Source: a virus
Lineage: Duplodnaviria > Heunggongvirae > Uroviricota > Caudoviricetes
Strand: one strand, 5' to 3'
DNA: 4,277 bases
IMG/VR virus record: IMGVR_UViG_2585427792_000010
Span: 1 to 4,277 of that record
Part shown: piece by piece, positions 1-4,277 of the stretch
Numbering within the stretch: position 1 is the stretch's first letter
Layout: each line of letters begins with the position of its first letter
Notes under the pieces: generated by a model
The model's database searches: none
Seen by the model: the letters and a program-made list of their open reading frames with translations, nothing else
What the model was told of the DNA's origin: nothing
Program-made: the position numbers and the translations under genes

Positions 1-25
1 ACCTCGGTTTACAGGAAACGGTAAA
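1..25. repeat. Left inverted repeat / crossover site of the invertible segment, truncated by the window edge
   Basis: Positions 1-25 (acctcggtttacaggaaacggtaaa) are the exact reverse complement of 3055-3079; the first mismatch is at position 26. Position 1-17 corresponds to the inner half-site plus centre of the 26-bp site at 3063-3088. Confidence 0.7.
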
Positions 26-962
26 TCAGGCTTCTGGCGCATTACAGAAAAACCAGAACGGCGCAGATATTCCGGGAAAAGATACCTTCACCAAAAATAT
101 TGGGGCCTGCCGCGCATATAGCGCATGGCTGAATATTGGTGGCGATAGTCAGGTCTGGACAACCGCGCAATTTATTTCGTGGCTGGAGAGTCAGGGAGCA
201 TTTAACCATCCTTACTGGATGTGCAAAGGCTCATGGACTTATGCAAATAATAAGGTCATTACAGATACAGGTTGCGGAAATATTTGTCTTGCAGGTGCTG
301 TGGTGGAAGTTATTGGCACTCGCGGCGCAATGACCATACGCGTTACCACGCCGAGCACGTCCAGCGGTGGCGGAATTACTAACGCTCAATTCACTTATAT
401 TAATCATGGTGATGCTTATGCTCCTGGCTGGCGACGAGACTACAACACGAAAAATCAACAACCTGCATTTGCTTTAGGGCAAACAGGAAGCACTGTCGGA
501 AATGATAAAGCTGTTGGCTGGAACTGGAATAGCGGGGTCTATAACGCAAACATTGGTGGCGCATCGACATTAATCCTCCACTTCAATATGAATACGGGGA
601 GCTGCCCTGCTGTACAGTTCCGCGTGAATTACAGGAACGGCGGTATTTTTTATCGTTCAGCGCGTGATGGTTATGGATTTGAGGCTGACTGGTCAGAGTT
701 TTACACCACGACCCGCAAACCCTCTGCGAGAGATGTTGGTGCATACACGCAGGCAGAATGTAACTCAAGGTTTATTACAGGTATTCGCCTTGGCGGTCTG
801 TCATCTGTTCAGACATGGAATGGCCCCGGCTGGTCTGACAGGTCAGGTTATGTCGTTACGGGTTCAGTTAACGGAAACCGTGATGAATTAATTGATACAA
901 CTCAGGCAAGGCCAATTCAGTATTGCATTAATGGGACGTGGTATAACGCGGGGAGTATTTAA
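3..962 (+). CDS. Start-less alternative tail-fibre C-terminal (receptor-binding) cassette (S'v / Hv'-like); silent in this orientation, expressed only after inversion fuses it to the constant part of the fibre gene
   Basis: My own translation shows the frame of track ORF 219..962 is open from position 3 with no stop. It begins LGLQETVN, identical to residues 391-398 of the minus-strand fibre. It ends ...RPIQYCINGTWYNAGSI, resembling the fibre C-terminus ...RPIQKYINGTWYNVAQV. No convincing SD precedes the Met at 219. Confidence 0.8.
   Translation, partial: LGLQETVNQASGALQKNQNGADIPGKDTFTKNIGACRAYSAWLNIGGDSQVWTTAQFISWLESQGAFNHPYWMCKGSWTYANNKVITDTGCGNICLAGAVVEVIGTRGAMTIRVTTPSTSSGGGITNAQFTYINHGDAYAPGWRRDYNTKNQQPAFALGQTGSTVGNDKAVGWNWNSGVYNANIGGASTLILHFNMNTGSCPAVQFRVNYRNGGIFYRSARDGYGFEADWSEFYTTTRKPSARDVGAYTQAECNSRFITGIRLGGLSSVQTWNGPGWSDRSGYVVTGSVNGNRDELIDTTQARPIQYCINGTWYNAGSI
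950..955 (+). promoter_or_regulatory. Shine-Dalgarno-like GGGGAG for the plus-strand chaperone gene, embedded in the last codons of the alternative fibre cassette
   Basis: GGGGAG at 950-955, 9 nt upstream of the ATG at 965 (12 nt from the ATG at 968). Confidence 0.4.
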
Positions 963-964
963 CG

Positions 965-1498
965 ATGATGCACTTAAAAAACATTACTGCTGGCAACCCT
1001 AAAACAAAAGAGCAATACCAGCTAACAAAGCAATTTAACATCAAATGGCTTTATTCAGATGATGGAAAAAACTGGTATGAGGAACAAAAGAATTTCCAGC
1101 CAGACACTTTGAAAATGGTCTATGACCATAACGGCGTTATTATTTGTATTGAAAAGGATGTTTCAGCAATTAATCCAGAAGGCGCAAGCGTCGTTGAATT
1201 ACCTGATATTACAGCAAATCGCCGGGCTGATATTTCGGGTAAATGGATGTTCAAAGATGGCGTAGTGATAAAGCGAACTTATACCGAGGAAGAACAGAGG
1301 CAGCAGGCAGAGAATGAAAAACAAAGCCTGTTGCAACTTGTCAGGGATAAAACCCAGCTATGGGACTCACAGCTACGGCTGGGCATCATTTCCGACGAGA
1401 ATAAACAAAAATTAACAGAGTGGATGCTCTTTGCGCAGAAAGTCGAATCGACAGACACTTCCAGCCTGCCAGTAACGTTTCCCGAACAACCAGAATGA
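965..1498 (+). CDS. Alternative tail fibre assembly chaperone (U'/Tfa'-like paralog), partner of the silent alternative fibre tip
   Basis: 177-aa [27 protein letters not shown].... Roughly 70% identical by eye to the minus-strand chaperone over the first ~110 aa, then a divergent C-terminal ~60 aa. Starts 2 nt after the stop of the upstream cassette (960-962). GGGGAG at 950-955 is a plausible SD. The homologous start may be the second ATG at 968. Confidence 0.87.
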   Translation: MMHLKNITAGNPKTKEQYQLTKQFNIKWLYSDDGKNWYEEQKNFQPDTLKMVYDHNGVIICIEKDVSAINPEGASVVELPDITANRRADISGKWMFKDGVVIKRTYTEEEQRQQAENEKQSLLQLVRDKTQLWDSQLRLGIISDENKQKLTEWMLFAQKVESTDTSSLPVTFPEQPE

Positions 1499-1501
1499 GA
1501 G

Positions 1502-1529
1502 AAGGCCCGCAATCGGGCCTTAATTTTTA
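1502..1529. terminator. Putative intrinsic terminator hairpin between the convergent chaperone genes
   Basis: Perfect 8-bp GC-rich stem (aaggcccg 1502-1509 and cgggcctt 1514-1521) with a 4-nt loop (caat), followed on the plus strand by aattttta. It lies in the 28-bp gap between the stops of the two convergent genes (1498 and 1527). The U-tract is weaker for the minus-strand transcript. Confidence 0.5.
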
Positions 1530-2054
1530 CTCTGGTTTTTGTGGCCATTCAGGCTTTGCCGTATCCACACGGCTGACCAGAACGCTGTAGCGTTCCCATG
1601 ACTCCAGTCGTGCGCGCTCCTCATCCGTCGCCATATTCAGCCTGACAGCGCGTTCCAGCGGCTGGATGACTGATTCAGCTTCGGAAAGCAATGCGGCCTT
1701 TTGTGATTCGGCTTGTTGTTGCTGTTCGTCTGCCGTATAAATCCGTTTAACTACAGCTCCATCCTTAAACATCCACTTTCCTGAATCATCAGCGCGGCGA
1801 TTGGCTGTAATATCGGGAACCTCAACGACGCTAAAACCTTCAGGGTTAAGCGTGGATGCATCTTTGGTGATGGCGACAATAATATTATTTTCATCGTAAA
1901 CAATCTTTATTGTATCTGGTTGAAAGTTTTTCACTTCCTCATACCAGTTTTTACCGTCTTCGGACCATAACCAGATAACATCAAAATTCTTTGTTAGCTG
2001 ATATTGTTCTTTCGTTTTAGGATTACCAGACTTAATATTTTTTAAATGCTGCAT
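1527..2054 (-). CDS. G: Tail fibre assembly chaperone (P2 gpG / Mu U / lambda Tfa family), partner of the currently expressed fibre tip
   Basis: 175-aa ORF starting [24 protein letters not shown]..., which I recall as matching P2 G. ATG at 2054-2052 lies 3 nt after the fibre stop (2058-2060). An AGGTG Shine-Dalgarno (2061-2065, minus strand) sits 6 nt upstream of the ATG, inside the 3' end of the fibre gene. Stop TAA at 1527-1529. Confidence 0.88.
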
Positions 2055-2057
2055 AAT

Positions 2058-4277
2058 TTACACCTGTGCTACGTTATACCATGTGCCATTGATGTATTTT
2101 TGTATTGGTCTGAAGATGGCTTCATCATCGCCATCTACTTCACCAATGATTCTTAATCCGGTAATTGCGTGTCCGGCTTTTTCATAACGACCACCACGCG
2201 CCATCAATTGAACAACACGTGTGCCAAGTCGGACATCTCTCACATAGCGTGAGTCAAAATTGCCATAATTTCCGGGAATAATTTGCGCACCGCAAAGCCA
2301 GTTGCCATTGTTGTCCATGTACGCCTGACCATCGGTGCCATTGGCTGTCCTTGAATTATTAATCATGTAAAAACCAAACTGGTAGTTACCAAGTCCACCG
2401 ACAAAAAATTTGCGTTCTGCATGGTCTTGTCTTAACAAAGCCTGCGCAGAACTTGTTGATACTGCGTTTCTACCAAAAATGACATTCTGGTTTCGCATAT
2501 CAATCCATGAGGTTGAGCCACTATTAATAGCAAACCTGTTTGCATACACCCAGGCGTTAGTTGTTATATCTCCTGTAACATCCAGACCATGCCCCATAGT
2601 TATGCGGCCAGTTCTGAGATTAAGCGTAAAGGGACGTAGTGGCCCTATATCACCATTTTCCCCCTCATTCTCTCGTGTAGGGATGATATGCAGGCATTCT
2701 TCAGAACGGCGAAAAATGGCACCAAAAGATGAATTAAATATCCTCAGTGCATTGACTGTCGATATTTTTACTTCACTGCTGAAAAGGGCTTTAACAAGAA
2801 CAGACAAAGCACCCCATTTAAGATTCATCAGGTCTTTTGTTGTGGTGCTTTGTTTGCTTCTCCATTTGAAATATTCATTGCCGTTGTCGCCTGTTTCAAA
2901 CCACATGTATGAATCAGTGTCGCTGTCGGCATCATTTTTAAATCCAATCTTTGCCCAGTCAGTATTTCGAATCCAGGCAAGGATTGAGTCGTTTTCAAAA
3001 GTAAGCCCACCGGATAAGGTATCGCCTGTCTTTTGAACGGCGTTACCAGCCCTGTTTACCGTTTCCTGTAAACCGAGGTATTCGATAACGGCGGCAACGG
3101 TCGATTTCGCAAGAATATCCCGCCCGACTTTTGTCAGGGTTGCCAGGCTGGCGACATCATTCCCCGTAAAATACGGAAACCTGTCTGCCGCAGTAGCAAG
3201 CCCGGCCAGCGCCGTCAGGGTGGCATCTTTCGGTTGCTTACCCGCAAGCGCGTTAGTCATGGTGGTCGCAAAATTCGGGTCGTTGCCCAGCGCCGCCGCT
3301 AACTCGTTCAGCGTATTCAGTGCGTCAGGCGACGAGTCTACAAGGGCGGCAATCGCGGCCATCACATAAGCCGTACTTGCGATCTGAGTATTATTAGTAC
3401 CTTTTGGCGCAGTTGGCGTTGTTGGCGTTCCGGTCAGTGCAGGACTATTTAAGGGCGCTTTCTTGTTCGTTTCATCCATTACCGCCTTAACCGCTTTCGA
3501 TGTCGCGGCCAGTGTTTCAGACGTGCTGTTGGTGGCACTACTGAGCTGGACTATCCCTTTTTGTGCCGTCGTGGCGTCCTGAGCGGTATATTTTGCGTTA
3601 GCAAGGTCATACGCGGCCTTTACTGCTTTCGGCGTTGCAGCCTGCGTTTCAGACGTGCTGTTGGTGGCGCTACTGAGCTGGACAAGGCCTTTTCGCGTCG
3701 TGCTGGCATCCTGCGCAGTATATTTACCGTTAGCAAGATCATACGCGGCCTTTACTGCTTTCGGCGTTGCAGCCTGCGTTTCAGACACGCTGTTAGTGGC
3801 GCTACTGAGTTGAACAAAGCCTTTTGCGGTCAGCGAGGCGTCCGGGTGACGTCGTGACTGTTCATGCTCTTTCAGTTTGTCATCCACGTAATCCACTGTG
3901 GCCATCACCATGGTGTTATCCACGGTAAGCGCCACGGTGGCAGTGCTGGATACGGTCAGAATGGTGCGAAATGTTTGTGCACGACCGGACCCTTCGGCAA
4001 CGGCTGGCTTGTAACTTTCGGCAGTATTTCCCACCGCGATTAAATCGCCGTGCTCATCAAATACACCAATTTCCCGGATCCAGAATCCGCCCGTTTCAGG
4101 AGGAATAACCAGCTCCGCAATAATGCGGTTCTGATGTGTTGCGTCCAGGATGACGCGATTAACAGTATGTCGCCACACCTCATGCACCAGACGGGTCTGC
4201 TTACTGTTTGGTGTGGGCAACGTGCCGCCACCGTCGCCCACGGCCATATGAGTCAGGCGGACAGGCTTACCATCTGG
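2058..4277 (-). CDS. H: Phage tail fibre protein, P2 gpH-like; 5' end runs off the window. Constant N-terminal shaft about 3077-4277, currently joined variable receptor-binding C-terminus 2058-3076
   Basis: 729-aa ORF on the track (2058..4247). My translation of 4248-4277 in the same frame (PDGKPVRLTH) has no stop, so the Met at 4247 is internal. From memory, the N-terminal region (MAVGDGGG..., IAELVIPPE..GGFW, ESYKPA.AEGSGR) and the C-terminal end (GNFDSRYV.DVRLGTRVVQLMARGGRYEKAGH.ITGLRIIGEVDGDDEAIFRPIQKYINGTWYNVAQV) match P2 tail fibre H. Contains 44-aa tandem repeats with the QLSSATNSTSET.AATPKAVK motif typical of phage fibres. Stop TAA at 2058-2060. Confidence 0.9.
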   Translation of the reverse strand, partial: PDGKPVRLTHMAVGDGGGTLPTPNSKQTRLVHEVWRHTVNRVILDATHQNRIIAELVIPPETGGFWIREIGVFDEHGDLIAVGNTAESYKPAVAEGSGRAQTFRTILTVSSTATVALTVDNTMVMATVDYVDDKLKEHEQSRRHPDASLTAKGFVQLSSATNSVSETQAATPKAVKAAYDLANGKYTAQDASTTRKGLVQLSSATNSTSETQAATPKAVKAAYDLANAKYTAQDATTAQKGIVQLSSATNSTSETLAATSKAVKAVMDETNKKAPLNSPALTGTPTTPTAPKGTNNTQIASTAYVMAAIAALVDSSPDALNTLNELAAALGNDPNFATTMTNALAGKQPKDATLTALAGLATAADRFPYFTGNDVASLATLTKVGRDILAKSTVAAVIEYLGLQETVNRAGNAVQKTGDTLSGGLTFENDSILAWIRNTDWAKIGFKNDADSDTDSYMWFETGDNGNEYFKWRSKQSTTTKDLMNLKWGALSVLVKALFSSEVKISTVNALRIFNSSFGAIFRRSEECLHIIPTRENEGENGDIGPLRPFTLNLRTGRITMGHGLDVTGDITTNAWVYANRFAINSGSTSWIDMRNQNVIFGRNAVSTSSAQALLRQDHAERKFFVGGLGNYQFGFYMINNSRTANGTDGQAYMDNNGNWLCGAQIIPGNYGNFDSRYVRDVRLGTRVVQLMARGGRYEKAGHAITGLRIIGEVDGDDEAIFRPIQKYINGTWYNVAQV
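2061..2065 (-). promoter_or_regulatory. Shine-Dalgarno (AGGTG) for the minus-strand chaperone gene, embedded in the last codons of the fibre gene (translational coupling)
   Basis: The minus-strand sequence upstream of the ATG at 2054 reads agcacAGGTGtaaattATG, giving a 6-nt spacer. Confidence 0.5.
3055..3079. repeat. Right inverted repeat, inside the fibre coding sequence at the constant/variable junction
   Basis: Exact 25-bp reverse-complement match to window positions 1-25. Encodes LGLQETVN of the fibre protein. Confidence 0.7.
3063..3088. other. Candidate 26-bp serine-invertase crossover site (gix/cix/pix/hix-like): TTCCTGTAAACC-GA-GGTATTCGATAA
   Basis: Imperfect palindrome of two 12-bp half-sites (TTCCTGTAAACC, and TTATCGAATACC on the other strand) around a central GA dinucleotide. 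The left half and centre are the part duplicated at the window start. From memory it closely resembles the Mu gix site; this was not verified by alignment. Confidence 0.6.
3477..3845 (-). repeat. In-frame tandem repeat, 132-bp period (44 aa), about 2.7 copies, in the constant shaft of the fibre gene
   Basis: The motif gtttcagacgtgctgttggtggc recurs at 3514, 3646 and 3778 (with variants), a spacing of exactly 132 bp. The protein shows KGFVQLSSATNSVSETQAATPKAVKAAYDLANGKYTAQDASTTR, then KGLVQLSSATNSTSETQAATPKAVKAAYDLANAKYTAQDATTAQ, then KGIVQLSSATNSTSETLAATSKAVKAV.... Confidence 0.85.

Follow-up and report, generated by a model that had tools for sequence, protein, structure and literature searches.

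A Mu G / P7 C-type segment, flanked by a Gin-family invertase gene, at the tail-fibre end of a P2-like Escherichia coli prophage

By about 1980, DNA inversion of the kind described for the G segment of phage Mu was already textbook material. The G segment of Mu, inverted by Gin, and the C segment of P7 serve below as references for the locus analysed here. In the P2-like prophages of EPEC E2348/69, coexisting orientations of a tail-fibre segment have been detected in clonal cultures by whole-genome sequencing and PCR, and one of these loci is a two-variant switch (Goldberg et al. 2014, PMC4272514). P88 (KP063541, Peduoviridae, P2-like) is the nearest named phage to our locus; the paper describing it ties residue 730 of the tail fibre to plating on K-12 strains, and nowhere mentions inversion.

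The window studied here, a stretch of 4277 nucleotides, is the tail-fibre end of an E. coli P2-like (P88-type, Xuanwuvirus) prophage next to serS. It is found at 100% identity over all 4277 nt in a public E. coli contig (L007), which we used to read the sequence beyond the left edge of the window. Phages Mu and P7 have segments (G and C, respectively) that were described long ago and to which the locus is nearly identical, and as such it is ordinary and already known. We consider it very probable that it is a Mu G-type invertible segment, in which a Gin-family invertase swaps the tip of the tail fibre together with its cognate chaperone. The features of the window are as follows.

1..17, minus strand: left crossover site, of which these inner 17 nt fall within the window
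3..962, plus strand: fibre tip B, silent; 319 codons and a stop, without a start codon of its own
965..1498, plus strand: tail-fibre assembly chaperone B, silent, of the U' type; 177 aa
1502..1531, plus strand: G+C-rich hairpin between the convergent chaperone genes, followed by a T run on the plus strand only
1527..2054, minus strand: tail-fibre assembly chaperone A, expressed, of the U / P2 gpG type; 175 aa
2058..3077, minus strand: fibre tip A, expressed, the variable C-terminal part of the fibre; 339 aa and a stop
3063..3088, plus strand: right crossover site, gix-type, TTCCTGTAAACC GA GGTATTCGATAA, with the core GA at 3075-3076
3078..4277, minus strand: constant fibre shaft, P2 gpH-like; Pfam Phage_tail_fib and three Phage_fiber_2 repeats

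The locus shares with Mu the order of fibre, chaperone, reversed chaperone', reversed tip' and invertase, the crossover sites (alike at 24-25 of 26 positions, their cores coinciding with the G boundaries in the Mu annotation) and the DNA of the segment itself, which is 90-95.5% identical in blocks; the G segment of one Mu-like prophage is 98.5% identical to that of the window. The interior is likewise 95.9% identical to the P7 C segment over window positions 36-3045. The earlier note had assigned the window to the Mu G / P1 C architecture, and these values, while bearing that out, show at the sequence level that the segment is homologous to Mu G and P7 C, beyond mere resemblance. There are nevertheless clear differences from Mu. 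The constant N-terminal part of the fibre is of the P2 gpH type rather than Mu Sc, the DNA homology breaks off at 3095, 7 nt beyond the right site, tip A shares no more than 66% identity with Mu S (over 2448-2783 the DNA does not align to Mu at all), the DNA-binding domain of the invertase diverges from that of Gin, and com and mom genes are lacking downstream. Genes for a P2-type gpU and a tape measure lie downstream of the segment. From P7 the locus differs in that the C segment is about 4 kb long, with a longer Sv part and a U gene split into Ua and Ub, in that the homology ends at 36 and 3045, short of the sites, and in that the cix sites and Cin of P7 / P1 are different, the invertase here being 74% identical to P7 Cin.

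Among P2-like phages, P88 matches the whole window in one piece at 96.3% identity, with the same gene order and orientation and an invertase protein that is 100% identical, but its 764-aa fibre differs by 25 substitutions concentrated in the tip, and residue 730 is Ile here and Leu in P88. In the case of P2 itself, the fibre is collinear with gpH, a 25/26 copy of the site lies at the same codon position, and G is 95.4% identical to chaperone A. P2 however lacks the second cassette, the second chaperone and the invertase, and fun(Z) follows G; its H has two 44-aa shaft repeats instead of the three found here, and differs in the middle of the tip. The earlier note had taken the constant part of the fibre to be P2 gpH-like. 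This proved correct, since the fibre aligns end to end with P2 gpH, has a near-identical shaft and sits among P2-type neighbours, whose Pfam domains are Tail_P2_I, Baseplate_J, GPW_gp25, Phage_base_V, P2_Phage_GpR, Phage_P2_GpU and Phage_P2_GpE. The gpH-homologous fibre thus lies among genes for gpI, gpJ, gpW, gpV, gpU and gpE, as in a P2-type tail module. Given that the segment is 96-98% identical to ones already described, and that earlier work has measured such inversion in P2-like prophages of E. coli, the discovery value is small: mechanism, segment and P2-like inversion were all previously known.

Bases 1-25 and 3055-3079 form an inverted repeat that agrees at 25 of 25 positions, where about 8e-9 such 25-nt inverted pairs would be expected by chance in 4277 bases, and it extends imperfectly to 49 nt at 78% identity. 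These two intervals had been proposed as the crossover sites themselves. As an exact repeat they hold, but the functional 26-bp sites are offset from them, lying at -8 to 17 and at 3063-3088. The left site, which reads TTCCTGTAAACCGAGGTTTTAGATAA on the minus strand and has its 2-bp core, TC, at 4-5, is cut by the start of the window, so that its outer half-site was read in L007; 25 of its 26 positions are the same in the Mu site that lies at the annotated boundary of the G segment. The right site matches Mu gix at 24 of 26 positions and also aligns with an annotated G-segment boundary of Mu. The architecture is one of two inverted 26-bp sites, each with a 2-bp core between half-sites of 12 bp, and the extent of about 5..3075 first estimated for the inversion is within a base of the cores at 4-5 and 3075-3076. 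A search at up to 7 mismatches found no third site in 17 kb. With only two sites in these 17 kb, a shufflon-like multi-inversion system of the sort seen in p15B Min and at one EPEC P2-like locus was rejected; the EPEC E2348/69 locus in question has three repeats and four variants.

The right site sits in frame inside the fibre gene. In the orientation of the window, tip A and chaperone A are expressed and the fibre is 764 aa long; the shaft in the window corresponds to residues 26-425, the first 25 residues lying past the window's right end. When inversion was simulated, a single open frame resulted, with tip B joined in frame to the shaft, and the junction changed from ...VIEYLGLQETVN|RAGNAV... 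as observed to ...VIEYLGLQETVN|QASGAL.... The same fusion exists in nature as a 744-aa fibre in three other isolates carrying this prophage (L005, L006 and L008). The 764-aa and 744-aa forms are identical over their first 433 residues, more than the 425 residues of the shaft, as both cassettes begin with amino acids that are encoded by the 25-nt repeat and hence the same. Tip A shows 96.8% identity to P7 Sv', matches PDB 5YVQ (E 1.4e-139), and is nearly identical to P2 gpH over its last ~45-100 residues. Tip B, whose frame (frame 3) is open from base 3 to the stop at 960-962, is 98.7% identical to Mu S' over the full length and 95% identical to P7 Sv, matches PDB 8JU3 at E 1.7e-219 and carries the Pfam domain gp37_C. 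The two tips are significantly similar to one another only in their first ~80 residues (35%) and last ~70 (38%). The chaperones both belong to Pfam Caudo_TAP: chaperone A (E 3e-37) is 96.6% identical to Mu U and 97.1% to P7 U', and chaperone B (E 4.8e-36) is 97.2% identical to Mu U'. The layout read from the letters alone, with two tips and two chaperones in mirror orientation between inverted sites, one of them in frame within the fibre, is thus confirmed. From its sequence, the hairpin between the convergent chaperone genes appears terminator-like and may act as such.

No recombinase gene was found inside the 4277-nt window. For the earlier note, the absence of such a gene near the left boundary would have refuted a switch; in L007, however, an intact gene for a Gin-family invertase of 195 aa starts 63 nt to the left of window base 1. 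The protein has Resolvase (E 1.3e-50) and HTH_7 domains with the catalytic Ser9, is 85.6% identical to Gin, and has as its top PDB matches, at about E 1e-100, the DNA-invertase entries 4M6F and 3UJ3, the latter of which we take to be the structure of Gin in PMC3575834. Over nucleotides 19-86 the gene does not differ from Mu gin (100% identity), and the corresponding stretch is labelled a putative inversion enhancer in the P7 record. Identity to gin is 88-100% over the first 360 nt, enhancer stretch included, but falls to 47-57% after nt 360, in the last third of the gene, which encodes the DNA-binding domain. The enzyme presumably recognises these gix-type sites despite the divergence of this domain. 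By analogy with the literature on Gin, Hin and Cin, inversion would be catalysed by the flanking invertase and would depend on Fis and the enhancer.

This suggests the following mechanism. The Gin-family serine invertase would pair the two inverted 26-bp gix-type sites and cut at the 2-bp cores, 4-5 and 3075-3076, after which rotation of the DNA and religation would flip the interior of ~3.07 kb. Since the right site is in frame within the fibre gene, the shaft would be joined to one of two tips. In one state, the 425-residue shaft would be fused to tip A (P7 Sv' / P2 H type) and followed by chaperone A, giving the 764-aa fibre; in the flipped state, it would be fused to tip B (Mu S' type) and followed by chaperone B, giving the 744-aa fibre. 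With tip and chaperone switched by inversion, each virion that a lysogen population releases would have one or the other of two receptor specificities. That host range probably differs between the orientations is suggested by the identity of the tips to Mu S' and to P7 Sv' / P2 H and by their being unrelated; the specificities themselves are extrapolated from Mu, P7, P2 and P88.

Both orientations occur in nature, as the earlier note had anticipated, and they were seen among isolates of the same prophage as well as within one strain lineage. In L005, L006 and L008, the segment interior is 100% identical to that of L007 but reversed. In these flipped isolates the outer half-site (3080, 3083, 3089) is unmoved and the interior is reversed exactly at the sites. 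In L005 and L006, flanks of 8.5 kb and 5.9 kb are free of mismatches and contain a single 1-nt gap, and the left flank of L008 shows one mismatch and one gap over 5.7 kb. Similarly, between the clinical E. coli strain 2020N21-110 and its lab derivative -15, a homologous prophage is flipped while its flanks are 100.000% identical. Across complete E. coli genomes, the junction type observed in the window was present in 165 and the flipped type in 126. Assembly artefacts can be ruled out as the source of the two orientations, since complete genomes from long reads contain each of them and the reversal is exact to the base. Lysogen assemblies may contain consensus errors in the segment when reads mix the orientations.

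It could be argued that the switch is a fossil, an inherited architecture that no longer inverts, and that the orientations found in databases are old alleles that have become fixed. P2 has only a vestigial 25/26 site inside H, without an invertase or a second cassette, and the decay of such systems therefore does occur. Against this, the 14 kb of flank hardly differ between flipped and unflipped copies (0 mismatches and one 1-nt gap in each flank) and the 3-kb interior is free of any differences between them, which argues for very recent flips. In addition, the homologous element has flipped between 2020N21-110 and its lab derivative, and the invertase ORF is intact, with its catalytic Ser9. 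A fossil is for these reasons a highly improbable explanation of the locus.

Still less probable, in our view, is that the flips arise when the inverted repeats of 25-49 nt recombine by RecA-dependent homologous exchange, rather than by site-specific recombination. In its favour, the exchange point can be mapped only to the 25-nt identical interval. The repeats are however gix-type sites (24-25/26) with a Gin-family invertase 63 nt away, and a stretch of 25 identical nt is about as short as RecA exchange can use. Moreover, a longer inverted homology within the segment, which covers about 390 nt at 70% and joins tip ends and chaperone genes (909-1297 versus 1722-2111), was without rearrangement in any locus examined.

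Finally, the plus-strand cassette might be a small tail-fibre gene in its own right, running from 219 to 962 (247 aa) or called shorter still. This idea draws on the ATG at 219 that opens a 247-aa ORF, and on P88 and RefSeq records that annotate a separate 'tail fiber protein' CDS, but is barely credible and was rejected, given that 72 codons are open upstream of this ATG up to the crossover site, that the cassette continues the shaft frame after simulated inversion and is naturally fused to the shaft in L005, that its full-length counterpart Mu S' is, per the Mu record, expressed only as a fusion, and that upstream of 219 the plus strand has no promoter-like site. The promoter scan gave four hits in the window, at 1035 and 3131 (plus) and at 2899 and 1166 (minus), fewer than in shuffled sequence, and so says little in itself. 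The cassette, which is promoterless, is routinely annotated by pipelines as a separate 'tail fiber protein'. Studies of host range in P88-type phages, such as those that engineer them for therapy, should consider the second tip, which is absent from the P88 paper.

Turning from the switch itself to its wider distribution, the Mu-homologous block has sharp limits, at 3095 on the right and on the left at about nt 360 of the invertase gene, just beyond the part that contains the enhancer and encodes the catalytic domain. Such limits would fit a self-contained module, and it is conceivable, though we think it unlikely, that segment, sites, enhancer and catalytic domain travel together as a portable unit among Mu-, P1- and P2-type phages and phage-plasmids, with the invertase sites perhaps serving as exchange points. 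Were this so, exchange might take place via intermolecular site-specific recombination, and not via homologous recombination in conserved fibre sequence.

The window holds two fibre tips in opposite orientation, each with its own chaperone gene, between inverted crossover sites of the Mu gix type:

-8 to 17, minus strand: left crossover site, TTCCTGTAAACC GA GGTTTTAGATAA, its sequence taken from an identical E. coli contig (L007, GCA_031722595.1)
3-962, plus strand: tip B, silent, open in frame 3, the mirror image of tip A (98.7% identity to Mu S′, 95% to P7 Sv; PDB 8JU3, E 1.7e-219)
965-1498, plus strand: chaperone B, following tip B (97.2% to Mu U′)
1502-1521: G+C-rich hairpin between the convergent chaperone genes
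1527-2054, minus strand: chaperone A, directly after tip A (96.6% to Mu U, 97.1% to P7 U′, 95.4% to P2 gpG)
2058-3077, minus strand: tip A, the C-terminal part of the expressed fibre gene (96.8% to P7 Sv′, 66% to Mu S; PDB 5YVQ, E 1.4e-139)
3063-3088: right crossover site, TTCCTGTAAACC GA GGTATTCGATAA, identical to Mu gix at 24 of 26 positions
3078-4277, minus strand: constant fibre shaft, with Pfam Phage_tail_fib and three Phage_fiber_2 repeats

The earlier note had proposed that inverted crossover sites bound the cassettes, and this was borne out by an exact 25-nt inverted repeat (1-25 versus 3055-3079; chance expectation for such pairs in the window ~8e-9), which extends imperfectly to 49 nt and contains both 26-bp sites, the left one truncated by the start of the window. 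The 2-bp cores, at 4-5 and 3075-3076, fall at the positions where the Mu record places the ends of its G segment. Since a search of 17 kb revealed no third gix-type site, the system is a two-state switch.

The fibre gene comes in on the minus strand from past 4277 and stops at 2058, entering tip A through LGLQETVN codons encoded by the right site itself. When inversion was simulated, tip B was joined in frame to the shaft, as expected from the proposal that one site lies in frame inside the fibre gene; because it does, each flip swaps the receptor-binding tip together with its cognate chaperone. The first start codon of tip B is an internal ATG at 219, and public records annotate 219-962 (6219-6962 in locus L001, 6303-6962 in L002) as a separate 'tail fiber protein'. 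This call, on a promoterless silent cassette, is an artefact to which invertible fibre genes give rise in annotation. The window also has another, longer stretch of inverted homology (909-1297 versus 1722-2111, ~390 nt at ~70%), which takes in the final residues of each tip (…INGTWYN…) together with the N-terminal half of each chaperone and reflects a conserved tip-end/chaperone interface. None of the loci examined was rearranged there.

No recombinase gene lies inside the window. Its presence near the left boundary, on which the proposed switch depended, was established using L007, which matches the window at each of the 4277 nt. There, a gene for a 195-aa invertase begins 63 nt to the left of base 1 and, like gin in Mu, points away from the segment. 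The protein, with Resolvase and HTH_7 domains and Ser9, is 100% identical to the invertase of P88 and shares 85.6% identity with Gin and 74% with P7 Cin. Among solved structures it comes closest to the DNA-invertase entries 4M6F and 3UJ3, the latter of which we take to be the Gin tetramer structure of PMC3575834. Gin-family serine invertases bind two sites as dimers, bring them into synapsis and cut the 2-bp cores, after which one half of the tetramer rotates by 180 degrees before religation (PMC3575834). Such an enzyme would pair the window's two sites, cut their cores, rotate by 180 degrees and religate. For Gin, Hin and Cin it is established, reportedly through Kahmann et al. in 1985 and Johnson's work, that Fis activates the reaction from an enhancer near the 5′ end of the gene for the invertase. 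Nucleotides 1-360 of the invertase gene are 88-100% identical to Mu gin, and fully identical over the stretch annotated in P7 as a putative inversion enhancer, from which we infer that Fis may act here too. The gene (L007 9036-9623) is a mosaic: its last third, encoding the DNA-binding domain, is divergent, with only 47-57% identity to Mu gin from nt 361 to the end, and this domain is therefore of different origin from the catalytic one. The crossover sites are almost pure gix despite this divergence.

Both orientations, which the earlier note had anticipated, occur among isolates. Three isolates (L005, L006, L008) carry the same serS-adjacent E. coli prophage (serS flank 99.7% identical to E. 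coli) with a segment interior that matches the window at 100% in reverse orientation. The L005 and L006 flanks (8.5 kb and 5.9 kb) are free of mismatches, with a single 1-nt gap, and 5.7 kb of left flank in L008 contains one mismatch and one gap. Apparent mismatches (3080, 3083, 3089) are confined to the outer half-site, which stays put, as predicted for exchange at the core. The flipped form encodes a 744-aa fibre in which residues 1-433 are the same as in the 764-aa form. In the clinical strain 2020N21-110, whose homologous prophage is 94.2% identical to the window over 97% coverage (junction 93.7%), and its derivative -15, the flanks are 100.000% identical and the segment lies in opposite orientation. 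Among complete E. coli genomes, 165 have the junction type of the window and 126 the flipped one. In P2-like prophages of EPEC E2348/69, orientations coexist in clonal cultures, by sequencing and PCR (Goldberg et al. 2014, PMC4272514). Aligned with its parent, another derivative, 2020N21-110-24 (L012 6717-9881), shows 33 gap openings and 18 mismatches, all of them within the invertible segment, whose genes carry frameshift annotation; its flanks are gap-free, with two mismatches at most. This looks like consensus error from mixed-orientation reads and, if so, would indirectly point to a mixed-orientation culture.

Significant similarity between the two tips is confined to ~80 residues at the N-terminal end (35%) and ~70 at the C-terminal end (38%). 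The full 764-aa fibre aligns end to end with P2 gpH and the shafts are near-identical, so the earlier note was correct in calling the constant part P2 gpH-like. P2 gpH has two 44-aa shaft repeats, whereas the window fibre has three, and P2 H retains a vestigial copy of the crossover site (25/26) at the same position. The three repeats are tandem 132-bp units at 3484-3879 (mutual DNA identity 75-83%). In junction searches some E. coli relatives were 132 nt longer, which suggests four repeats; shaft length thus varies with the number of repeats.

We infer the receptors of both tips from relatives only. Mu with S′ and U′ plates on E. coli C, Citrobacter, Shigella sonnei and Enterobacter. Tip A belongs to the P7 Sv′/P2 H/P88 type. 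The host range of P88, a P2-like Escherichia phage, maps to fibre residues 716-746, and Leu to Ile at 730 permits plating on K-12 strains, in a paper that mentions neither an invertase nor a second tip (PMC5285337). Residue 730 of the window fibre is Ile (2058-2200 region).

The system belongs to the Din family of invertible tail-fibre systems, and its segment is DNA homologous to the G segment of Mu and the C segment of P7, joined to a P2-type shaft. Identity reaches 95.9% with the P7 C segment (36-3045), 98.5% with a Mu-like prophage's G segment (L003; 1-3095) and 96.3% with P88 over the whole window. That P2, Mu and P1 exchange fibre parts horizontally has reportedly been described for a long time (Haggard-Ljungquist et al. 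1992, Sandmeier 1994). Given this family membership and exchange, the P88 deposit with the same arrangement and an annotated 'DNA invertase', its occurrence in hundreds of E. coli genomes, and surveys of P2-like hotspots and programmed inversions that note it, the system is already known. Only mildly unusual are the sharp limits of the Mu-homologous block, 7 nt beyond the right site and ~360 nt into the invertase gene, which hint that the invertible module may travel as a unit.

The same segment, 96% identical, was found in GCA_044906855.1 (L004 8348-13405), on a backbone that looks like a phage-plasmid, where IncFII RepA and ParA lie beside P2-type baseplate genes and the invertase is only 57% identical; a 49-kb plasmid (H54, NZ_CP151070.1) has the segment as well. 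Backbones that carry it therefore number four or more: Mu-like, P1/P7, P2-like prophage and plasmid. At the prophage border, serS and the prophage gene ogr are separated by a hok/gef-family toxin gene (L005 814-954, L007 16994-17134).
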